DNA of 64,000 nt from a virus (taxonomy: Duplodnaviria > Caudoviricetes): IMG/VR virus record IMGVR_UViG_2595698834_000001, positions 85,845-149,844 of that record, one strand, 5' to 3'. The notes beneath the pieces are model-generated. The model did not search any database. It was not told where the DNA came from and saw nothing but the letters and a program-made list of their open reading frames with translations. Both the position numbers and the translations under genes were made by a program. Of this stretch, positions 3,842-43,753 are shown piece by piece. How positions within the stretch are numbered: the first letter of the stretch is position 1; every line of letters begins with the position of its first letter.

Positions 3842-6244
3842 TTACCAAGTGTACACGTACCGTAAAACGGACGTGTTGTTGGGTGATACACTATTCTGAT
3901 TGTGACCGACTATTGTCGTATCTGTTACGTAGATATATTTAAAAACAGGCTGTATTTTATCTACACCTCCAGCACCCGTGGTAGGGTCGGCGCCTAGGGA
4001 TTGAACCATACCTCCTGCTGTCAGGTTGCTAAATCTTTTGGGTACATAGATGAAGTTCCAAAAAGAATTGTAAGGTTCTCCTCTGTCGTACCTACTCCAA
4101 ACCATAATCCACCCGTTAGGGCATTTTGAGATTGCCCTACTAGGGGTTATTGTCTGCCTGGCGTGCATGTACTGATACCCTGACCATAACTCTTCAAGCC
4201 CTTGGCGATCGGTGAATACTACGTTGTCGTTTAAGTACCCTACACCGTCCATCACCCTATTCCAGTCGTAGTCTGCGACGTTAGCACTGTTCTCAGGCGT
4301 ACCTGTTTTAGCCCACATTAGCCCTTCTCCTCTTACGTTGGCAGGGTCATTAAAATATAGACCGTTCAACCCTGTAACATCAGAGTTGTTTAGGAACATC
4401 GCCCCTGAGCCTTCGGTAGCTCCTGCGTAAATGTTCTGCCCGAACTCTACTGTGCCGTTAATCTTAATTGAGTATTCTTTGGAAGGGAAATCAAAAAATC
4501 CAACAGCTTTTAAGTCCGGGTCAAAGAACTGTATGGGTCTACCAGCAGAAATCACGTAGTCTTTTGTGACTGTAGATAATTGATCAACGGCTTCAATTTG
4601 AAGATTGAAAGTCATTAGTTCGCTCAAAGTTATAGTTTGTTCTACAGTGTAAACAGTTGGTCCTCCTGTTTTAAGCAAGTTCCACCACTGACCCCATGCA
4701 GATGCACTAGCTAACTTCCACCTAAATTTTAAAGATTTAAGGGAGTTTTTGTTGGTAGATCCTACATTTAGCGGTTTGAGCGTTACAGTTTTTGCTAAGT
4801 TTGTCGCTGCCTCAAACCCGTTATTGCGTGTCACCGACACCGAGATGTTAGGATTTGAGTACGGTACTATAGTGACTGCTCGGGTAACAGATGTAGAAAA
4901 CCCTCGACTGTCAGTTGCTTTGATTGTAATGTTAGTATTAGACGGAGATGAAACTGTTCCGAAAGATATTACTACGTCAGAAGTCGAGTAGTTCTCTGTT
5001 TTCGTTACTCCGTTGACAGTTACCGAGTACGTTTTCATGACGGCGCTATTTTGTGCTGTAGCGCTAGAGGACGATGGTATGGTTACCTGTAAGTTTGACT
5101 TGTTTTGAACGATTACCTGATCGTTGGTGGTAATAGCAGTTGTGATCGTATTTACGTCCTTATAGGTCACACCATTTGCTGTGAACACTGGTTTGTTTGT
5201 GCTTGGGTTCGCTACATATGTAAAAGTCTTGTTTGTTGGTATACCTACTTGCGTATTTCCGTAATACGCCGTTACTCGAATGTTGGCACTATTTGAAGAA
5301 GACTGCCCTAGCTGTGAATAGATAGAGCTTTGTTCGGAAGCTGATGGGGTCCATGAAGTGCTTGTGCCTACTCCTGTAATCGTCTTTCGGTAGTTTCCTG
5401 TACTAATCTCAACAGTGTGTGTAAAGCTGCTGTTAGACCTGTTAAGTCCAATTGTGAACGTCTGATCTACATACACATTAGTAGCTGATCCACCTTGACC
5501 GTTCGTAGAACTTACCGAAGTTAAGCTAGGTATCGTACACGTCCCGTTGTAAGTCGTAGTTCCTACTCTGCTGCTACCACTATAGGTGTTTACATTCCAC
5601 CTAACATCAGCCGATGTTCTTCCATCTAGTTGCTTAAAAATATTCTCGAACTCAGTGCTCGTAAAACTAGTAGACTTAGAGGTCTGTGATGTGGACAAAT
5701 CAACTCTTGTGATGTTGACCCATGACCCGCTTCGATTCTTGATGTCTAAGTATACAGTGTGACTGAACGTTGAAGATGCTCGGTTCACTGTGACGGTTCT
5801 GTTGCTACCTGCTGTTAATGATGCGCTTGAACTCATTGTTGAAGCTCTTGGGATAGTTGGCAAGCTAAACGTTTTAGCAGATATAGTAATACGGGTCCTC
5901 ATTACTCCTTGTAATGTGACTTGAGGGCTGAATTCTCCGCTAATTCGTACACTACCTGACCCATTGCCGCTATGCTTAACTGTTTTAGACTTTGTAGCAA
6001 GAAGCTTCTTTTGGTTAGGGTTTAACGATGGAGTAGCGCTAAAGCTGTAGTCTGTCCCATCAATAGTTATTTTCCCACTACGGGTCATAGACGAGTTCAC
6101 CCTGCCGTACCCATTTAAGGCTTCCCAGTAAATCTTCGCAGTAACCGTACTTGAGTTGTTAGACACGTTCTGTGTCGCAGTCCACGATACAGAAAGCCTC
6201 CAGTGCGAACCTACGTTAGTGTAAATAGTTCCTGATCCTGCCAT
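3842..6244 (-). CDS. Tail fibre / receptor-binding protein (DUF859-like N-terminus)
   Basis: 800 aa Ser/Thr-rich beta protein; QNVSNNSSTVTAKIY, TIPRAST and RASSTFSHTV repeats; C-terminal LWSG...CPNGWIMVWSRY fibre-tip motif. Confidence 0.7.
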   Translation of the reverse strand: MAGSGTIYTNVGSHWRLSVSWTATQNVSNNSSTVTAKIYWEALNGYGRVNSSMTRSGKITIDGTDYSFSATPSLNPNQKKLLATKSKTVKHSGNGSGSVRISGEFSPQVTLQGVMRTRITISAKTFSLPTIPRASTMSSSASLTAGSNRTVTVNRASSTFSHTVYLDIKNRSGSWVNITRVDLSTSQTSKSTSFTSTEFENIFKQLDGRTSADVRWNVNTYSGSSRVGTTTYNGTCTIPSLTSVSSTNGQGGSATNVYVDQTFTIGLNRSNSSFTHTVEISTGNYRKTITGVGTSTSWTPSASEQSSIYSQLGQSSSNSANIRVTAYYGNTQVGIPTNKTFTYVANPSTNKPVFTANGVTYKDVNTITTAITTNDQVIVQNKSNLQVTIPSSSSATAQNSAVMKTYSVTVNGVTKTENYSTSDVVISFGTVSSPSNTNITIKATDSRGFSTSVTRAVTIVPYSNPNISVSVTRNNGFEAATNLAKTVTLKPLNVGSTNKNSLKSLKFRWKLASASAWGQWWNLLKTGGPTVYTVEQTITLSELMTFNLQIEAVDQLSTVTKDYVISAGRPIQFFDPDLKAVGFFDFPSKEYSIKINGTVEFGQNIYAGATEGSGAMFLNNSDVTGLNGLYFNDPANVRGEGLMWAKTGTPENSANVADYDWNRVMDGVGYLNDNVVFTDRQGLEELWSGYQYMHARQTITPSRAISKCPNGWIMVWSRYDRGEPYNSFWNFIYVPKRFSNLTAGGMVQSLGADPTTGAGGVDKIQPVFKYIYVTDTTIVGHNQNSVSPNNTSVLRYVYTW

Positions 6245-6323: not shown

Positions 6324-9300
6324 TTATTCTATGTTTGGTACAACTGCCCAGCCGTTGCGAACAGAAGAGGTAATATTCAAAATTTTTACTCTACCCATTG
6401 TTATTTCGTCCTTAGCTCGTAACTTTTTGGTTACAGTTTCTTCCCCATTTAAGTAAAATATCTTTTCAAAGTTTCCTGTACCGTCCGGGTCGTAGAATCC
6501 TGCAAACTCTGTAGGCGTGATAGCGGTATACCCAATCTCATTTCTGTCAGCATCTAGCTGCGAAACACGAATACCCTGTAAGTTCATTCTAACATAAGTG
6601 TTATAAACTTCCCCAGTTGCTAGTGACCATTTAAGAGGAATGTCTCCGATTGTTAGCATAATACCAGTTAAAGTAGCGTCTACATCGTTAGACCCAATGA
6701 ACCGAACTGTAATGTTGTCAGTTGTAGGGGTGAACGTAATATATTCAGATTCATACCCGGAGGTTATAAGGGATGAGTTATCCGCTATCTGCGTTTTAAT
6801 GACGCCATCTTCTAAAATCTGCACCCAAAATCGACCTCTACTTGAATTTCCTGTTGTACGTTTATTTAGGTACCACGATAAAGTGTAAGGCTGCCCCTCT
6901 ATTACAGATACATTTTGGTTTACTCCTTGGTACAACCCGTCAGGCTTAAACACAAAACCACTACCAAACCCTAAAGAGTCAAGCTCTAGTGTGCTAATGG
7001 TCGAAACTGTCGAAGCATTGCCGGGGTATGTTAGTGTCCAAAAGTCTAAACCGGAGAACCCTATACTGTTTTTAATAAGGTTCATTCCGCCTGCTGCGCT
7101 AAACTTGGCGGTGATGTCATTAGCTGTCTGATCAAGTTGTGACTGGGTAACATACGGCGAGAAGTCGATGCTGTCAAACGTGTCTTTTATCTTTTTATCA
7201 ACATCGTTAGTTAGATCGTCTATTTTGTCGTTAGTAGCGTAGTTTCCTAGATCGTCTGTGTTGGCTTTACTCGCTAGGGCGAGTTGGTACGATACTGAAC
7301 TTGTTACAGTATTAACGATAGCGTCGTCTGTTATGGACTGCTCAGCTTCAGATATCCTCCGTTGTAGTATCGGAATAATATACTTTAGGTTGTCTGTTAT
7401 TGTGGCAAGGTTTAAGGCGTACTTTATGTAACCACTCTGTATAGTTGGGGTACCTAGAGGGTACTTTAATTCAATGTTATTTACTCCTGTCTTTAAGCCT
7501 AAGACACCATCAAACGGAACAGAGACTTGGACTAGTGTAGCTAAACAGTACAGTATTTGGTACATGTTAACTGAGAACTCGGATATAGCAAAAGAATTTC
7601 CAGAAGGTACTGTTGTAACGGACCTAGCAAGGTCGGTGTCTTTTAATGGGTGCCAAGTTTTAGTACCTGTTTCGTTATAGTTACTTCCGAATGTTCCGTC
7701 ACACATCTTCCACCCGAGGAAATATGCTTTCATTTCTTCCGGAGAAGGACTGTAGTTCTCTCCCCACCCAGTATCACTGTCTGCAACGGATATATATAAA
7801 TCACCGTCACTGTTTAACTGGGCTTGGTCTACTGTAGTAATTTCGGTTGTTGTTGTCAACAGCTCTCCCGTAGACTTAACTCCTGTTACAGTGGCTCCGA
7901 TAACGTCGGAACCGAATGACCGAGAAACTAGACTCTTAAACCCGTCCTTGTCGACTGCAAGCCCCCACTCGTAGGAGTCGTCAATTAGTATGTCTTCCCA
8001 TCTTTTTTCTTTTGTTAACTCTCCAGTAGTTTCCCATTTGACCCTGTCGTAGTAATCTCCTTGCCCGTAGAACTTACCATACATGGTTAGTGCGCCCTCT
8101 CCTAAGAACGAAGGGTTTGTAACAGGCACTATTCTGTTTCCGTTCGAAACCCATTCATTAGGCGGGTTAGCGGGGTCTATTCCGTTAGCGACCCACCCAT
8201 CAACGTGACTTCCGTGGAATTCAGGAAGACCTACACTTGCAATAGGTGAGTTTATCACCACAATATTTGAAGATGAAGTAATAGGAGCCGTCTCAAACTC
8301 TCCCGCTTTACTTACTGCTTGAATTGCGTCTCTTACTGCTCCTTCTCCGACTTGATCCGCATATTGCTGCTGTCTCTTCTGTATCTCGGTGTTTAGTAAA
8401 TGGTACCGAAGTTTGTAGTTGTTCCAAGCGTCATCCCACGTAGCCGAGTCAATTGTAAGACTACTAGCGGTGTCAATATCCCATGGTTTCGGTGTTAAAT
8501 CTCCGAGGTATGTTCTCAGTGCAGAGTACGCATTACCGAAGTTTACGAAAAACTCGTTGATACTAGATACTCCGATATCACTGGCAGCCTTTCGAATAGC
8601 GTAAGCTTGACCTAGTTGACTTGCGTCAATTTCTTCTAGGGTCGGCATACTCTCATTGGACTCAAGGAACCTTCCTACGATATTTGCGATCTCAGCCCTT
8701 ACAACGCTTCTCTCATACCGTGTGAGCTTGCTATCAGAGTCTAGGTCTGTTACCCCGTTGTAAGCATCCTTAACTTGCTGATCTGCGTTAGGATCAAGCT
8801 GCGCTAAGTTCAGGGGACCTGTTTGCTCCCATTCTCCTGTTGCCTCTCTGAAGATGTAGAATTTGAATGGTTCTTGAGACGTATTAACCCATATCATCCC
8901 GTCTGTAGGGTTTTCCGGTGGAGTTGGTGAAGTAGCAATGTCGTTCAAGTTTACAAGTGTCTTTTGTCCTGAAGAGATGATTCGTCCTTGGACTGCCTTT
9001 TTGCTCACGTCGACAATAAGGTTACTCGTTCCTTTTACATCCGCAGAAGGGACAGTTACTTTATCTCCGGTAACCGATGTATACTTTTTGACCAGCTCTC
9101 CATCAGACTTGTAGAGTGCCCACGCAAAGTTAAAGTCACTAGTAGGGATGATTGTACCGTTTTGAGTTAGCTGTGCTGTAAACTCCACAGACCCTACTCC
9201 GTTTTTGTAAACAGATGATCCGAGAATGTCCGCCATAATAGGGTCTTGGAAGTCTCGTGCGATAACCACACCCGAATATTTAATTCCGGTTGTAGGTGCC

Positions 9301-32904: not shown

Positions 32905-33027
32905 TTAACTTCGGCTAGCTACAGCGTGCTTATCTAAGTCCCACGCACCTGTCATATGGAAACCTGCTTGTTTAAATCCTAGTCCCATTCCTCCCGCACC
33001 ACAAAAGAAATCATTTACTTTAAGCAT
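32905..33027 (-). pseudogene. Truncated C5-cytosine DNA methyltransferase (motif I only, 40 aa)
   Basis: GAGGT RBS then MLKVNDFFCGAGGMGLGFKQAGFHMTGAWDLDKHAVASRS*; FxGxGG SAM-binding motif I, then an immediate stop and terminator. Confidence 0.8.
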
Positions 33028-33045: not shown

Positions 33046-33420
33046 TCATTCACTTGGAAGTCTCCCTTCCTCAAACAGCATTTTAGCTGCACTATTGCCT
33101 AGCTCATACGCCGACACTCGCAAGTCCAATTCAGTCGTACGGCTAGCTTGGTCTGCTGCCGATTGGTCATAAAAGAGTGCAGACCGCCCATAGTCTAAAA
33201 TTGACGATCCTTTATACCCTCCAATAACAAAACCGAACATTTCACAGGCTTCTATAACTGCTTCACTGTTATTTTCTTGTTCATTCTTAAGCTTTGCTAA
33301 ACTTGCTGCTGTTTCTTCCAGTTCCTTCTCGAGTCTAGCAATGTCACGATCTAGCTGACCTTCTCTGACGTTGTGAATGTGCTTCATGGTTTTAAATACC
33401 GTATCTTTCAGATAGTCCAT
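33046..33420 (-). CDS. Hypothetical coiled-coil protein
   Basis: 124 aa with AAGGAGG RBS. Confidence 0.65.
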   Translation of the reverse strand: MDYLKDTVFKTMKHIHNVREGQLDRDIARLEKELEETAASLAKLKNEQENNSEAVIEACEMFGFVIGGYKGSSILDYGRSALFYDQSAADQASRTTELDLRVSAYELGNSAAKMLFEEGRLPSE

Positions 33421-33442
33421 TTCGTATTCCTCCTTTTTTTGA

Positions 33443-33515
33443 TGGGTCCCAAGGGATTCGAACCCCCTCTCTTACCAGTTATGAGCTGGCAGCTTTACCA
33501 CTAAGCTAGAGACCC
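33443..33515 (-). tRNA. tRNA-Met(CAT) (elongator Met or Ile2; CCA not encoded)
   Basis: GGGTCTC..GCCAG-CTCATAA-CTGGT..GGTTCGAATCC..GGGACCC-A cloverleaf. Confidence 0.9.
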
Positions 33516-33688
33516 ATAAGTTAGTGTAGGGTCAAACCGGCAACCACCCTACCTGTATTCAGCTCTCTTACCTGAGACCCGAGGGTACCACTCGGCAGGT
33601 AAAATTACCTCTACGGTTTTATTTCATTCGGTTTTTAAAAGTACTCTCGGGGGTCCGCATTGGCAAGAGGCGTGAGAGCTTCTATGAC

Positions 33689-33960
33689 GTAGAAGAGGAA
33701 GAAAAAATTCATTATATCTTGTAGTTGCTACATTCCATAGCCCAACGTGCGGTGAACCGGATTATTTGTACGTCGTCCGTCGTTAATCGTATACCCGTTT
33801 CCCATTGTCACCAATATTGGATTGTTAGTAATGTCCCTATTTGAAAGGTTAAATAGTTGAGATATGCTCTCAACAAAAGCAGGTTTTCCTCTTCTACTGC
33901 TGGTTTGCACCAGCTATCAAGGTAGAGATTGTCTACCCTCATAGCTAAGGCAAATGCCTA
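33689..33960 (-). ncRNA. Unassigned structured non-coding RNA downstream of the DUF6847-like gene
   Basis: 12-bp long-range helix (33886-33897 with 33689-33700), GCAA-tetraloop hairpin, several internal hairpins, no credible ORF. Confidence 0.55.
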
Positions 33961-33965
33961 GCTGC

Positions 33966-34487
33966 TTACATGTACTTATCAGCGTTTCCAAAAGAGATGT
34001 AGTGAGTATGGTTTGCTCTTTCAATGGCGTTAGAAAGTGAGTTAGCAAACTTCTCTAGTTCCTCTCCTTGAGATTTGAGCGACTTAGGATCGAACTGGGC
34101 GTACTTGTATTCTACTTCTGAGGAGTTGTAACTTGGTAAACGTTCAGTTTTCTTAGCTTGACCATAACGTTTCAGAAGAGAAGCTTCTGCTCTCAGTTGC
34201 TTAGCTAACTCCAAAGCTTCAACAATTGTGTAAACTGTACCTGTTGCAGTTTCGACAGTCGATCCTGAATTGGCTGCTGCGATCTTTAAAGAGATTTTTC
34301 TGTAGTCATTCCGAACATTATTTAGCTCTTCTGTGACTTCTTCGAATGTTCTCTCAGGTTTTTCGTACTCTTCACCTTTCTGAGCTGTTACGAATGCGAT
34401 ATCTTCACGTTCACGTACCAGTTCATGAAGTTTACGAGAGATGGCATTCTTTAATGGTAATGCCTCAAACAAATAAACTTTTGTCAT
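33966..34487 (-). CDS. DUF6847/DIP1984-like coiled-coil protein
   Basis: LFEAL..K..I.RKLHEL...KIAAAN...TIVEALEL...LSNAIERAN pattern; own sigma-A promoter. Confidence 0.55.
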   Translation of the reverse strand: MTKVYLFEALPLKNAISRKLHELVREREDIAFVTAQKGEEYEKPERTFEEVTEELNNVRNDYRKISLKIAAANSGSTVETATGTVYTIVEALELAKQLRAEASLLKRYGQAKKTERLPSYNSSEVEYKYAQFDPKSLKSQGEELEKFANSLSNAIERANHTHYISFGNADKYM

Positions 34488-34520
34488 ATTTATCGTCTCC
34501 TTTAATTTGACTGTAACTAC

Positions 34521-34550
34521 ACTATAGCATATAGCATGTTATACTGTCAA
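34521..34550 (-). promoter_or_regulatory. Sigma-A promoter (extended -10)
   Basis: TTGACA-18nt-TATAGT with TG; shares a 17-mer with the promoter at 34903-34932. Confidence 0.7.
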
Positions 34551-34559
34551 CAGTTTTTT

Positions 34560-34856
34560 CTATACTCTGTAAATAATATCTCTTCGTTTAACTTCTTCAC
34601 CGCTGTTAACTCTTTTAATGAGTTTTTCGTACTTTCTAACTTTTTCTTCATATGCCTTAATCCTCTGTCTCAGCTCTCCGTCTAGGTATTCTATTAGTCT
34701 TTGTGCACCAATCTCAGAAATACCTCTCTTTGTCACATCTCTTAAAATCTCCGATTCTGCTATCTTGCACTTTTCTAGTTGATACTGAGCTATTTCTAAA
34801 ATTTCCTGAAGACTTTCGATAGACACGACTGTGCCTAATAAATCATAGTTAGCCAT
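34560..34856 (-). CDS. Hypothetical coiled-coil protein
   Basis: 98 aa with AGGAG RBS and own promoter (TTTACA-18-TATAGT). Confidence 0.65.
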   Translation of the reverse strand: MANYDLLGTVVSIESLQEILEIAQYQLEKCKIAESEILRDVTKRGISEIGAQRLIEYLDGELRQRIKAYEEKVRKYEKLIKRVNSGEEVKRRDIIYRV

Positions 34857-35059
34857 GGTTAACCATCTCCTGCCGTTTTATCAGTATGTTTACTGTAACT
34901 ACACTATATCATACAACATCTTACATTGTAAACACTATTTATATAAAATAAAAAGGGTCAGACGCATCCGACCCTAGTAAGTATATGCCGAAGCAATATA
35001 CCGCAATTAATTTTATTATATCATATTAAACCACTAGGATATACTCTCCATGGTATTAC

Positions 35060-35131
35060 TGGTTGGTCTAAGGGAGTTGAACCCGTACCTGTCTGGCGAA
35101 AACAGACTGTTCTATCATTAAACTAAGACCA
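35060..35131 (-). tRNA. Degenerate tRNA-Glu(TTC)-like gene (6-bp acceptor stem, encoded CCA)
   Basis: TGGTCT-TA-GTTT..GAAC-A-GTCTG-TTTTCGC-CAGAC..GGG-TTCAACT-CCC..AGACCA-A-CCA. Confidence 0.55.
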
Positions 35132-35138
35132 CACGAAA

Positions 35139-35209
35139 ACTGCCTAGAGAGGAGTTGAACCTCTCTTATGGGGGTGTTTGAGCCACCAAACTAACCGTAG
35201 ATAGGCAGT
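35139..35209 (-). ncRNA. tRNA-like element (intact T-arm and closing stem, aberrant D and anticodon arms)
   Basis: ACTGCCTA...GAGAGG-TTCAACT-CCTCTC-TAGGCAGT. Confidence 0.45.
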
Positions 35210-35657
35210 AATATAATTATACAAGTATAAGCGTGCCATAAGGAGATCGTTCTTAAGTTAACCCTTCCGTCTCTTCTACGGGTAGTCACCCTCGTAGATT
35301 CTGTGCAGAGTACGAAGCTTAAGATCAAAAAAAAACACTCTTCGGTAGCAGAACCTTGACGGGGGATCAGCCCGCTGCACTGATCAGGTGCTTAATAGCT
35401 CTGCTACCTATAGAGTATGATTCTCAGTAAAGAAACCGATTAAGACCACTGAGAACGAGGTCGCTTCGCTTGGCAGAACCACTCAAACCCAAGCTAGACT
35501 CCCCTGTCTTATTTTATATACCTCTTTATCACAGGTGGTTAGATATGTGGAGGCGGTAAAAGTTGCCCCGTCTAAGCCGCAGGGGATGACATTTGCAATA
35601 TTATCTAGTCCCAATGCAACGGAACAACCTAATTGCGCTGGTCTATTAACGTGACAA

Positions 35658-36059
35658 CTACCGTCTCAGGAGTTGTACATCCATTTTTTCTACAATCTCT
35701 CCGTCTTTTAGTAGGTAGTAGTGGTTAACTAGAGCTTGCTGGTTGTTATCCGGTAACGTGTATACGCTAACTGTTCTGTTTCTAACAGTCAGTGTGTTTG
35801 GTAAAGTTGTTTCAAAGACCTTATGATCATCGGTTACTTCTAAGATGTCATTAGATGGGTTGTTAGCCCAGTGGTTAGTAGTCTCACTGAACGGATTCTC
35901 CTCAGTACCTCTAAATCTGTAGAGGACGTGTGGGCAGCTATACATTTCTACGTACTCAGTTAAACTACCTTTGTTGAACTTATAAGTCACTTCTAAAGAG
36001 ATACCTACAGTCGGGTTACTGCTTCCCTCGGGGCTCTCTTCAACAATTTTTTCGTTAAT
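35658..36059 (-). CDS. Hypothetical protein (probable ATT start at 36059; GTG alternative at 35990)
   Basis: AAGGAGG RBS 9 nt upstream of an in-frame ATT; no ATG/GTG/TTG between the upstream stop and 35990. Confidence 0.55.
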   Translation of the reverse strand: MNEKIVEESPEGSSNPTVGISLEVTYKFNKGSLTEYVEMYSCPHVLYRFRGTEENPFSETTNHWANNPSNDILEVTDDHKVFETTLPNTLTVRNRTVSVYTLPDNNQQALVNHYYLLKDGEIVEKMDVQLLRR

Positions 36060-36208
36060 GCTACTTCGCCTCCTTGTTCAAAACCTAACCTCCTAGGCAG
36101 GGATGTGAGTCTAAGGTGAAAATATAGTCAGGTGTGAGATAGTATACTAGAGGTAATCACACCAATTACCTCTGAGCAGGTTGCATTTAATGACTGTTTC
36201 CTAGTCTA

Positions 36209-36281
36209 TGGACTGAGAAGGGTTCGAACCTCCGACACAGGGATTTTCAGCCCCCTGCTCTACCGACTGAGCTACCAGTCC
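36209..36281 (-). tRNA. tRNA-Phe(GAA)
   Basis: GGACTGG-TA-GCTC-AGTCGGTA-GAGC-A-GGGGG-CTGAAAA-TCCCT..GGAGG-TTCGAAC-CCTTC-TCAGTCC-A. Confidence 0.92.
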
Positions 36282-36403
36282 AAGGTGTCTCACCTCTCGT
36301 AAGGGTATGAGGTTGAGCGGTGATAGAGTCACCTCCATAGGATTACGGGAGCATTCACTGGAGCCCCCTTGCATATAGAAGTGGCTAGCTAGCCCATTTA
36401 AGG

Positions 36404-36470
36404 ACGATCTGAGAGGAGTCGAACATCTTTACCTGCCGCAGCACTGCTTTTACCAATAAGCTACAGACCG
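36404..36470 (-). pseudogene. tRNA-like gene with collapsed anticodon arm
   Basis: CGGTCTG-TA-GCTT-ATTGGTAA-AAGC (normal acceptor and D arms), TGC-TGCG-GCA mini-hairpin, TTCGACT T-loop, CAGATCG. Confidence 0.55.
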
Positions 36471-36630
36471 ATATAAAAAAGTACACGAGCGTTTATACAG
36501 AGTGTATAAGTGAGCTCGCATACGAAGTGGGGTCGGGGGAGGTGACCCCTATCTACATCTTTCTCGCCTGAGACGTAGATGGTCGAAAATAAGGTAATTA
36601 CACAAGTTAAGGTACTTTTTAAGGTACCAA

Positions 36631-36702
36631 CTGTCGTAGTAGGACTCGAACCTACAACTTCTTGATTAACAGTCAAGCACTCTACCATTGAGTTATACGA
36701 CA
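36631..36702 (-). tRNA. tRNA-Asn(GTT)
   Basis: TGTCGTA-TA-ACTC-AATGGTA-GAGT-G-CTTGA-CTGTTAA-TCAAG..GTAGG-TTCGAGT-CCTAC-TACGACA-G. Confidence 0.92.
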
Positions 36703-37280
36703 AGGTTCAGGGTATGTAAGGGAGTACACGGTGGTGGTTGTATAAACTCCCTGTTACCCTGAGTGTATTTCTGTCTTAAGAGTTTAGAACCTACGACAAA
36801 TTTCACATAGTTGTGTTAAATAAAGGAGGAATAACCAACGTATGTTTAAGATACAAGATTCACCGCCTCGTGGCTGATGTCCAGTGAATCTTTATCTATA
36901 TACATTATAACATACTCTGATGTTATAGGGAGCCCTTTATTCGAATTTTCTTTAAAAAAGTTTAGTAGAGAAGAGTTAACCTCTCTACTATAGGAGAAGA
37001 GAAGAGGAAGAACACGGTGGATGTTTGTCCTGCGCCTTCAACCTATAACTACTATAACATAATTTTCTGAAGGTTGCAACATCTTCTGTGATTTTTTCGG
37101 CGGCGCTTTTTTGTCTATTTTTTTTTGACGTCGATCATAATATAAATATTATATAAAAGTATATAGATAAGTGTATAAATAAATATATAAAGTATTTAAA
37201 TATATAATACAGAGCACTTAAAATTAAAATAGGACACGAATATATTAAAAGGAGTCAGAAACCCTTATGTACCAAGGGAA

Positions 37281-41331: not shown

Positions 41332-43753
41332 TGAGTATTGTAAACCCAATTGACGGAAAAATGATTCAGAATATTGCGAAACAAACATTCGGAAAGACTA
41401 GTTTAACAAAGGACGAGCTGGCGTATGTACTAACTATGCTTAACCCATCTTCGTACCTCTTGAAGCACCACAAAGTAAAAAACCACCCTATCACATTTCA
41501 CGTAAGCGGGCACGACTCCGTGAGAGCACAAGCGCACAGACCATGGCAGGTTCAGATGGTTAATGATATGCATAAGGATAAAGCAGTCATAAAGTCACGT
41601 CAGCTGGGTTTATCTGAGCTAGGGATAGGTGAAATGATTAACTTTGCAGATTTACATAGCTATGCAGGCGTTAAATGTTTATACACATTCCCGACCAACC
41701 GTTAACATTGGCGGTTACAAAACTCCCTTAATTGACTGGGACCCCCTAACAGGCAAGGCTGAGGGAAATCAGCAGCGAAGCCTCAACCGAGGAACGTTCA
41801 ACGACTAGTAAGACCTTATAACAAGGCATACACTCAAGCGAGTGGAAACAGGGAGCCCCTTACGGGGATGATATAGTCTGATCTACATGGAAACATGTAG
41901 CTGCCAAATGGCGGGCGAAAACTAGCGCACTTCGTCGAACAAAATGCAAATGAAAGACTTCGTTGCAACACGTCTTAACCCTTTACTAGAAACAGGATAC
42001 TACGGAACAATAACGGATAAGCACACAGACTCACTTGAGAAGAAGAAGATAAGAAACAGTTTCCTTATGTTCCGTTCTTCTTCCAAAGGAGGAGCCGTAG
42101 AGGGTGTCGACATCGACTATCTGTCTCTCGATGAGTATGATAGGGTATCAGCTTCAGCAGAGATATCAGCAATGGAGTCTATGACTTCTTCTGTGTTCCA
42201 ATATTTAAGACGTTGGTCAACCCCTACGATAACCTGTGGGGCATTGTAGAGTAATCTACAAATGAAAAACTCTGTTAAACGGGCATAGCTGAATAATCAA
42301 TAAGCTGGTAAGAAAGCCTAAGTCCTGAAAAGGATAGTGGTAATCCCGTGCTAAATCAGACCATAATAGTCTGTAAATGCCTAGAGACTAAACTTTCGGA
42401 TAGCTACCTAAATGGAAGTAGTGAGAACCGGATGAGAGGTTTACAAGCCAATATGTCTATACACCCGACAATCCTAAACTAGGTTACCTAAGTTACTTGT
42501 AAACTGTAAAGCAGAGAACCCTAAACCAAAAGTTAGGGTTGTGATATAGTCCATTCCGACTGTTAAATCAGTGTTAAAGTATAGCGAAAGCTACGGTATA
42601 TTAGACAGTGCCCGATTACGGGATACATGCCTTATACACTCAGTCAGATCAGCATGAGTATGTACATAAGTGTGACAGTTGTGGTCACTATAACCATTTA
42701 GACTACGAGAAAAATATTGAATGCCTAGATGAAAAAGGAGTAGACGTCCTAGCTAAAACAGTTAAAGACGGTTCCTTTAGATTTATTTGTTCGAAGTGCG
42801 GAACCTCACTAGACCGCTGGTATAATGGGTCATGGGTTGCAACATACCCTTCCCGTACAGAGGATGGAGGCGGTACTCGAGGGTACCTAATCACTCAGAT
42901 GAATGCTGTATGGATTAGTGCGGATGAGCTGAAACGTAAAGAGCTTAAAGCGAAATCTAAGCAGCATTTTTATAACTATGTACTTGGACATCCTTACCAA
43001 GACGTTGCTTTAGCTGTTCAAGAAAAGGACATTATGGACAACATTCGACCTTACTTAGAAGGTCCTAAATTTGATAGAGGGCAGTACCGATTTATCTCTG
43101 TAGGCGTAGATTGGGGACAGCACCACTGGATTACGGTAAGAGGATTCAGAGAAGACACGAAACAGATTGACTTAATTAGAGCTTTCTCGGTTGAGAGATC
43201 ACGAGGTGTAGCCAATATCGAGGCTGACTTAGAGAACATCATTAACCAGCTTGTACCCTACAATCCGGATATCATTTGTGCAGACATCGGGGACAATGGA
43301 AACTATGTTGACAAGCTCACAGACTACTTCGGAGCAGGCAAGGTATATGGAGTTAAGGTTAACCCTAATCCACGCTCTACGGGGCAAATAAAACCTGTAT
43401 GGCAGGATACTAGAGGTATGGTAACGGTAGATAAACTCACTCAGAATAAACTACACATCGCAGACATGAAGATGGGCAGACTAGGGTTCTACCGTAAAGA
43501 TCGTGACCTTGAGCTTTACGCTTTGCATTGGCGTAACGTTGTCATTCGAGACGAAGAAGATGAGAAGACTGGTCAAGTATATCAGATCATTACTAACAGA
43601 GGAGACGATCACTACGCACAATCCTCGGTGTATTCGATGGTTGGTATGGAGCATGTGCTTGAACCATACATCGTCGGAACTGAAGAGAATGCGTTTGGTT
43701 TCACTACAGTTACGGCACCACAATCAACAGATATCTATGCAAGAGGGTATTAG
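41331..43753 (+). CDS. terL: Terminase large subunit, spliced join(41331..41702,41947..42225,42605..43753), ~599 aa
   Basis: KSRQLGLSE Walker A, LSLDEYD Walker B, GVDWG and GDDHYA nuclease motifs; splicing restores FPTNR|QMKDF and WSTP|TVPDYG. Confidence 0.93.
41703..41946 (+). ncRNA. Group I intron 1 in terL (244 nt, ORF-less)
   Basis: 5' exon ends in U (AACCGU pairs with IGS GCGGUU); terminal G; core motifs AATTGACTGGGA, AATCAGCAG, TCAACGACTA, GATATAGTCT. Confidence 0.9.
42226..42604 (+). ncRNA. Group I intron 2 in terL (379 nt, ORF-less)
   Basis: CCCU/GGGG P1, CUGU/ACAG P10, AAACGGG/AATCCCGT P4, TAGAGACTA and GATATAGTCC P7, terminal G at 42604. Confidence 0.88.

Follow-up and report, generated by a model that had tools for sequence, protein, structure and literature searches.

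Type III toxin-antitoxin systems (ToxIN, CptIN and TenpIN) pair a toxin gene with an RNA of repeats of about 36 nucleotides (nt), which lie upstream of the gene and are separated from it by a terminator. TRAP and HutP of Bacillus, which act on the trp leader and the hut mRNA, are oligomeric readers that bind one short word per subunit, the words being set at fixed spacing on unpaired RNA, with a 7-nt period in the case of the HutP sites. ROOL, GOLLD and the stable RNAs of the T4 tRNA cluster are large structured phage RNAs that adjoin tRNA genes and are probably co-processed with them, and the DUF3800-VIII RNA (RF03075) is a prophage-associated structured RNA of 64 nt. The locus described here lies in a window of 64,000 nt from a virus record (IMGVR_UViG_2595698834_000001, positions 85,845 to 149,844) and consists of a gene of 173 amino acids (aa) of the DUF6847/DIP1984 family, followed on the same strand by a non-coding spacer of 449 nt (33517-33965). 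A conserved, covarying structure of the sense-strand RNA is genetically tied to this one protein family, and the pairing of gene and RNA recurs in many bacteria, pointing to an undescribed protein-RNA unit.

The locus resembles the type III systems in the tight linkage of a protein gene to a same-strand repeat RNA, with which the protein is supposed to assemble, and in its mobile, patchy distribution. It differs from them in that the RNA lies downstream of the gene, the repeat has a 7-nt period within a closed domain, the bacterial terminator follows the RNA, and the protein has the helical DIP1984 fold with no Pfam or PADLOC match to ToxN or AbiQ. Short words at a fixed spacing on unpaired RNA are shared with the TRAP and HutP targets; however, those proteins have other folds and regulate through the 5' leaders of other genes, whereas the array here lies in the gene's own 3' tail and is closed by a long helix, and would be read by an oligomer of the protein. 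As with ROOL and GOLLD, the phage RNA is large, structured and next to a tRNA gene, but no Rfam model, these two included, matches it at E≤10, and it is defined by its link to a protein gene. The DUF3800-VIII RNA stands directly after the terminator of the module in SPbeta-like prophages; it is a separate element outside the module and is absent from the phage window in an Rfam scan.

In the portions of the literature that could be consulted, no published function for the DIP1984/DUF6847 family and no description of the RNA was found; the supplements of RNA-motif surveys (e.g. PMC11109978) were outside the search. Within the same portions, DUF6847/DIP1984 occurs in plasmid annotation only, and 'septicolysin', a frequent annotation of the family, is used as an annotation, among others on Acinetobacter plasmids. 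Heptanucleotide repeats in connection with noncoding RNA are represented there only by the unrelated TAACTGA repeats of Beggiatoaceae (PMC4679880).

The phage gene and its RNA

The window is part of a virus record of 149,844 bp with direct terminal repeats. Among named phages it is closest to the Bacillus phages that make up the genus Agatevirus (Herelleviridae), and it belongs to an Agatevirus-like Bacillus phage; over 33400-34560, identity is 90.6% to SDFMU_Pbc, 89.9% to Bobb, and 86.8% to Bp8p-C and Bp8p-T. All genes of the locus are on the minus strand, in the order promoter-like site, 173-aa gene (33966-34487), spacer and tRNA-Met. The original prediction placed a sigma-A promoter before the gene and no terminator after its stop codon, and both points held in consensus scans. 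The sigma-A-like site at 34521-34550 consists of TTGACA, an 18-nt spacer, an upstream TG and TATAGT, and agrees with the consensus, its only basis, at 11 of 12 hexamer positions; no terminator-like site was found on the minus strand between the gene and 32894, the first being at 32894-32870. The length of about 270 nt given there for the non-coding stretch was too short, since the stretch runs for 449 nt up to the tRNA-Met (CAU) at 33441-33516, which lies directly 3' of it and is called by ARAGORN and by the Rfam tRNA model (58.4 bits). A near copy of the promoter-like site stands at 34903-34932 (minus strand), before the preceding gene; the two sites have the -10 box and the bases after it (TATAGTGTAGTTACAGT) in common. 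Each precedes one of two successive small genes, and they may represent a phage promoter family.

The spacer folds at -135.6 kcal/mol, compared with -111.8 ± 5.5 kcal/mol for shuffled sequences (z -4.33; none of 100 shuffles folded as well). The original prediction could assign it to no known RNA family, and Rfam 15 gave no match in 33517-33965 at gathering thresholds or at E≤10. At its 5' end is a module (33899-33962) of three hairpins: H1 at 33944-33962, H2 at 33915-33943 with the helix GCUAU-GAGGGUAGA/UCUACCUUG-AUAGC, and H3 at 33899-33914 with the helix GCUGGU-GCAA-ACCAGC. The latter two had been predicted and are present, except that a single long hairpin, tipped by H2, is an alternative fold for all three. 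In every clade member inspected, the loop of H1 is complementary to that of H3, and H2 and H3 show compensatory changes relative to the Bacillus relatives.

The 5' module is followed by a domain of about 185 nt enclosed by a 12-bp helix, the 5' arm of which (33886-33897) is made of purines except for one base and the 3' arm (33689-33700) of pyrimidines except for one. This helix and the internal hairpin GUUGAGA/UCUCAAC (33857-33875), in which two of eight pairs are changed on both sides within the clade, are found where they had been predicted, as are the other helices listed. The predicted CUAUUU/AAAUAG helix is also present in the window, but neither it nor the repeated AAUCC motif is kept in relatives. 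The 'ACG-repeat stretch' exists and turns out to belong to a larger array with a 7-nt period at 33746-33802, most units of which end in AC (UAC, AAC or GAC). Also inside the closed domain is a small hairpin, GCUAU-GGAAU-GUAGC (33727-33741), which is invariant in the four phages compared and unrecognisable in the Bacillus relatives.

Beyond the closing helix, a hairpin at 33643-33679 (GCUCUC ... GAGAGU) corresponds in position to AGCUC ... GAGCU or GAGUU in the Bacillus relatives. It is followed by a phage-specific 3' extension of 126 nt (33517-33642), which has its final hairpin at 33526-33552 and stands where the bacterial relatives have a terminator. Within this extension, contigs from two metagenome runs (X1 and X2) have about 71 different letters in place of 33560-33627, and the same part is where Bp8p-C differs most. 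Neither default ARAGORN nor the Rfam tRNA model gave a cloverleaf in the spacer. A tRNA-Cys with an intron over 33847-33968, called by ARAGORN only with introns allowed and a lowered threshold, was treated as spurious, together with other weak ARAGORN calls, because default ARAGORN and the Rfam tRNA model do not support them.

The spacer has a mean column identity of 93% among the four phages. Invariant columns make up 94% of the 5' module, 80% of the closed domain, 86% of the array (measured on 33740-33796), 94% of the hairpin after the closing helix (measured on 33636-33688), 80% of the 3' extension and 80% of the tRNA-Met; the corresponding values for codon positions 1, 2 and 3 of the gene are 86%, 93% and 56%. 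The gene after the tRNA-Met aligns poorly among the phages and was left out of this comparison. A 60-aa open reading frame (ORF) with a GTG start at 33728-33910 (minus strand), the conservation of which would have told against the original prediction, is broken among the four phages by indels of 7, 1, 1 and 2 or 6 nt and has no Pfam or PHROG match, and it was therefore rejected as a gene. The ORFs annotated here by depositors (41 aa in Bobb and 49 aa in Bp8p-C) differ from it and from each other in length and frame. Since the RNA segments are 80-94% invariant, on a par with the tRNA-Met and compared with 56% at third codon positions, and since they carry indels, the stretch is under purifying selection that acts on the nucleotides and not on a reading frame. 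Covariation among the four phages alone, a sample without power, amounts to one of 129 predicted pairs changed on both sides.

The 173-aa protein was predicted to be DUF6847/DIP1984-like, and this identity is confirmed by Pfam and by structure. DUF6847 (PF20935) matches residues 39-161 on profile positions 22-138 of 141 with 33.5 bits (gathering cut-off 27, E 4.8e-8). The NCBIfam model DIP1984 (NF038048) covers profile positions 2-146 of 149 with 40.8 bits (E 2.4e-10) and misses its cut-off of 70 bits. By these profile scores, the protein belongs to a diverged branch of the DIP1984 family outside the curated NF038048 subfamily; PF20935 at E 1e-5 misses the Bacillus member of this branch in genome G003. 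An AlphaFold2 model built from 31 sequences, with four long helices and short strands, has a mean predicted local distance difference test score (pLDDT) of 93.2 and a predicted template modelling score (pTM) of 0.72. The one structure that clearly shares this fold is PDB 3KDQ, from Corynebacterium diphtheriae and itself uncharacterised (Foldseek E 5e-6, template modelling score 0.62-0.70); VIA-align superposes 151 of 152 residues on it with Z 12.4, compared with Z 8.6 over 64 residues for the next entry, and the remaining structure matches are generic helical similarity. A structure of the family was solved in 2009. Sequence searches of solved structures and of the ESM Atlas gave nothing for the protein beyond 'DIP1984 family', and it matched neither a PADLOC model nor a toxin family. 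The invariant or nearly invariant polar residues K37, R59, D61, R63, N73, Q97, R99, K106, N159 and Y172 may be candidate nucleotide contacts.

Related genes and RNAs in phages and bacteria

A tblastn search with the protein found seven of 50,697 phage records, all Agatevirus, and a large protein collection contains nine relatives. Chromosomal relatives are found in Bacillus sp., B. glycinifermentans and B. licheniformis (49-51% identity) and in Priestia filamentosa (46%). It had been proposed that a covarying structure be sought downstream of homologues, and a conserved covarying RNA is indeed present directly after the gene: at all four genome loci examined, an RNA homologous to that of the phage follows the stop codon. 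In these four Bacillus-type loci, the H2 core is the same with a different helix tip, H1 and H3 have changed pairs, the closing helix is at the same place with a different sequence, and the internal hairpin has changed pairs. The order after the internal hairpin is an GGAAACGG-like motif, an array of (U)UACG-like words, the closing helix, a hairpin and an intrinsic terminator. None of the four RNAs has an Rfam match at gathering thresholds.

A search of IMG/VR with the H2 pattern found 13 stretches, namely the Bp8p-C copy and 12 prophage-like contigs in which the gene precedes the RNA. Searches with exact RNA words of 24 and 28 nt returned nothing but the copies of Bp8p-C and Bobb in IMG/VR, and the H2 pattern with up to two mismatches found only the three known genomes among 91 of the Bacillus family. 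Covariation in this window clade was measured on 16 distinct sequences, in the helices that MAFFT aligned in register. Of all cells, 98.2% pair, compared with 38-52% when the partners are slid; nine of 34 pairs are changed on both sides, the figure for the closing helix, which differs in the Bacillus relatives, being four of nine. Neither the 42 cells that are changed on both sides nor the covariation score was reached by any of 500 shuffles.

A terminator follows the RNA in 11 of 12 Bacillus loci of the window clade and in none of the four phages. Two loci lie in SPbeta-like prophages, between a YonO-like and an HU-like gene on one side and yonK on the other, and two are in ordinary chromosomal surroundings. 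In the SPbeta-like prophages (locus L013, 4911-4976, plus strand, and the prophage-like contigs of IMG/VR), the terminator of the module is followed by a DUF3800-VIII RNA (Rfam, 58.8 bits) and then by yonK and an exonuclease gene. In Bacillus sp. WMMC1349 (L011), a group II intron with a reverse transcriptase/HNH ORF (5400-5484 and 7755-7934, minus strand) is located about 0.9 kb downstream of the module.

More distant relatives were found with a protein profile, which matched in 35 of 401 genomes sampled from the host order. Judged by eye, 29 of 30 loci have a hairpin that begins only a few bases past the stop codon, and after it more structure and an array; the exception (L038) is a truncated match. 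In the largest clade, 21 RNAs were aligned (A4). Their first hairpin and their closing helix, which spans about 170 nt, pair in 96.6% of cells, compared with 44-60% in slid controls, and 11 of 21 pairs are changed on both sides, eight of these among the 11 pairs of the closing helix; none of 500 shuffles reached this. G-U cells outnumber A-C cells by 21 to 6, which fits folding of the sense strand. All 21 RNAs are followed by a terminator-like hairpin with a T-run. Across all clades, the 5' arm of the closing helix is nearly pure purine and the 3' arm nearly pure pyrimidine.

The first-hairpin pattern of the large clade matched in 26 of the 401 genomes, compared with one match for the reversed control. 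In 25 of these, the match is directly downstream of a protein match, at a distance of at most about 40 nt. The 26th (genome G412, locus L085) is a full-length RNA (covariance model R1, E 1.5e-65) after a 96-aa ORF, the last 27 or so residues of which are the C-terminus of the family. The hairpin is also kept behind a broken gene in G254, where the gene has three stops, and in G366, where it is split. The RNA signature therefore occurs only next to the gene or its remnants, in 26 of 26 genomes with a match, and no intact large-clade gene without the hairpin was seen among the 401 genomes. A search with model R1 recovered only the G412 copy as a further RNA. Most copies are in bacterial chromosomes, with no tRNA nearby. 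No recurring partner was found among the neighbours, which are unrelated housekeeping genes at 21 loci (39 proteins scanned); therefore the gene and the RNA suffice as a unit. For 20 loci, Rfam at E≤1 gave only sub-threshold overlaps, with mir-2756 (33.5 against 61 bits, on the L033 hairpin) and with the Rev39 5' untranslated region (UTR; 19.9 against 88 bits, on the opposite strand at L054).

For the array, self-similarity was computed over a region delimited on the alignment by the internal hairpin and the 3' arm. A lag of 7 nt came out strongest in 19 of 21 large-clade sequences (with mean identities of 0.53 at this lag and 0.41 at lag 14) and in all 16 window-clade sequences (0.46 and 0.34, respectively). 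Repeat words are centred on ACC in the large clade; those of the window clade and of L033, L034, L060 and L061 have ACG or AC at their centre. The proteins with the ACC type all fall within a single clade of the protein tree, which has 99/99 support. In consensus folds the array is unpaired in the large clade and, with RNAalifold, largely unpaired in the window clade, where there is one short helix at its 5' edge; a single-sequence fold of the phage RNA pairs parts of it.

The canonical genes of the family were also considered. Of 401 sampled Bacillota genomes, 20 have a Pfam DUF6847 match, and so does Deinococcus radiodurans, one of 14 control genomes. Downstream of these genes is a conserved non-coding element. 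At 16 of 18 loci the same G-rich motif is found 187-242 nt after the stop codon, and ahead of it are a conserved word similar to UACUACC and heptad-like units (GUAC or GYA). After five of the genes (L062, L063, L066, L072 and L073) a hairpin similar to a tRNA T-arm, with a GGUUCRA-like loop, lies in the middle of the RNA; Rfam, with its tRNA model included, gave no match on 15 canonical loci at E≤0.1. Canonical genes occur as tandem pairs about 2 kb apart in G581 (C4, 24556-26993; L064 and L083) and G492 (C35, 118299-120713; L065 and L082), and the G-rich 3' motif is missing from the RNA that follows the second copy.

A proposed protein-RNA unit and rival explanations

The original prediction had envisaged a module of protein and RNA. 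Gene and RNA do form one unit, as is seen from the covarying RNA after the homologues and from the linkage in 26 of 26 genomes, and the comparative evidence for this core of the prediction is strong. The unit is self-contained, with its own promoter and, in bacteria, its own terminator. We favour, with moderate confidence, the reading that the non-coding stretch is a conserved structured RNA in one genetic unit with the DIP1984/DUF6847-family gene before it, so that the two make up a module of a protein and a 3'-UTR RNA, probably a ribonucleoprotein. The RNA, which starts only a few bases after the stop codon, would be the 3' part of the gene's transcript. The array may be bound by several protein copies, roughly one per 7-nt unit, while the closing helix would hold the ends of the array together; the outcome would be a ribonucleoprotein assembled on the tail of the protein's own mRNA. 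A Bacillus or an SPbeta-like element was probably the source of the phage unit, the terminator of which may have given way to the 126-nt extension and the tRNA-Met; the 3' end of the phage RNA would then be made by 5' processing of the tRNA (RNase P); such a release is suggested because the phages have no terminator whereas 11 of 12 bacterial relatives have one.

A wider form of this reading is put forward tentatively, as it seems to us possible but falls short of being probable. It holds that DIP1984/DUF6847 proteins are RNA-binding and assemble as multimers on a 7-nt-periodic array in the 3' tail of their own mRNA, as a widespread self-encoded ribonucleoprotein of bacteria, plasmids and phages. 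The word specificity (ACG, ACC or GUAC types) would change with the protein clade, and the phage copy would be a captured one, the RNA of which is released by tRNA processing and used in phage-host conflict. The unit is the first functional lead for a protein family found in about 5-9% of sampled Bacillota genomes and also in Deinococcus. The RNA class itself measures 250-330 nt and has an unusual design, in which a purine/pyrimidine helix closes a heptad array; Rfam 15 has no such class, and a lytic phage with a tRNA in the terminator's place offers a simple system for RNA maturation and for the role of the unit in infection.

Several observations weigh against the module as proposed. In the window clade, the count of nine double-changed pairs among 34 was reached by 38 of 500 shuffles, and the double changes mostly set the four phages apart from the bacteria and so stand for few independent events. 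The periodicity of single sequences is no stronger than that of the best shuffled window when windows are chosen freely (0.49 for the phage window and 0.49 for the shuffle maximum). The switch of the repeat word is a single event on the tree and is therefore weak evidence of co-evolution, which it fits and does not prove. Model R1 of the large clade misses both the window RNA and the canonical-clade RNA, its best hits in the window (E≥0.18) lying elsewhere; that the RNAs of the three clades form one family is thus suggested by position and architecture, without significant alignment. Structure comparison by Foldseek and VIA-align found no known RNA-binding relative of the protein fold. The only RNA-library contigs, from a relative in a soil metatranscriptome, are no evidence of transcription, of transcript ends or of strand. 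They cover 33434-33897 (with 15 loose letters), 33720-33861 and 34216-34559, and none falls on 33924-34190; in the run search, matching runs contain 5-18% of the words, and the four runs compared contain relatives about 90% alike.

A toxin-antitoxin-like pair is an unlikely explanation. It supposes that the protein is harmful alone and is sequestered by the RNA made in cis, similar to type III systems with another layout, and that the pair serves addiction or host conflict. The unit is found in a lytic phage, in SPbeta-like prophages and, as a single copy inserted between unrelated genes, in chromosomes; such a patchy and mobile occurrence is consistent with this, as is the lack of any intact large-clade gene without its hairpin, and the three decayed genes with a retained RNA (three stops in G254, a split gene in G366 and a truncated gene with the full RNA in G412) hint weakly in the same direction. 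However, three decayed copies are too few to carry weight, the copies have housekeeping neighbours and are not in defence islands, and neither PADLOC nor the toxin families gave a match. The units are of 7 nt and not of about 36 nt, and the RNA is after the gene and not before it, so that transcription gives a 1:1 ratio.

It is about equally improbable that the RNA is a cis-acting 3' UTR to which the protein does not bind, and which acts through host factors such as RNases on the stability or localisation of the mRNA, or tunes termination and read-through, which in the phage would extend into the tRNA-Met and later genes. In its favour, all copies of the RNA are in cis and begin at the stop codon, the bacterial ones end in a terminator, and in the phage a tRNA and other genes follow the RNA before the first terminator is reached at 32894-32870. 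A stabiliser, however, needs no 250-330 nt with a long-range helix and a periodic array, and the difference in repeat word between protein clades would be unexpected if a conserved host factor were the reader.

Still less likely is a trans-acting RNA, the array of which would titrate a factor of host or phage as a sponge or decoy, or would pair with repeated targets, the gene being merely co-promoted. Repeated short single-stranded words do resemble sponge RNAs, the phage copy is in a tRNA-rich region, and some canonical-clade RNAs contain the hairpin similar to a tRNA T-arm; on the other hand, the tRNA covariance model matches none of these RNAs, and three diverged clades share the link to one protein family. 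Some plasmid regulators are known to bind direct heptad repeats, and the array might by the same token be a DNA-level element of 7-bp iterons for a DNA-binding protein (e.g. a partition or replication site) with incidental inverted repeats. This appears very improbable, as compensatory changes keep the helices, the excess of G-U over A-C favours the sense strand (21 against 6), the orientation is fixed relative to gene and terminator, and chromosomal copies lie between housekeeping genes. Hardly credible is an encoded small protein, be it the 60-aa ORF or the 41- and 49-aa ORFs annotated by depositors in Bobb and Bp8p-C, given the frame-shifting indels among the four phages, the disagreement of the annotated ORFs in length and frame, the lack of a family match, and substitutions that preserve base pairs and not a reading frame.

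Other features of the window

Just upstream of the terminator at 32894-32870, a 40-aa ORF (32905-33027, minus strand; FFCGAGGMGLGF) may be a truncated gene fragment; it contains what we take to be a resemblance to motif I of cytosine-5 DNA methyltransferases. In the tRNA-rich region (35061-36703), a weak match to the tRNA model at 36404-36470 (minus strand; 30.7 bits, gathering score 29), obtained in a permissive search only and not called by default ARAGORN, may be a degenerate tRNA. A group I catalytic intron is matched at 41634-41900 (plus strand) with 60.2 bits, compared with a gathering score of 50.

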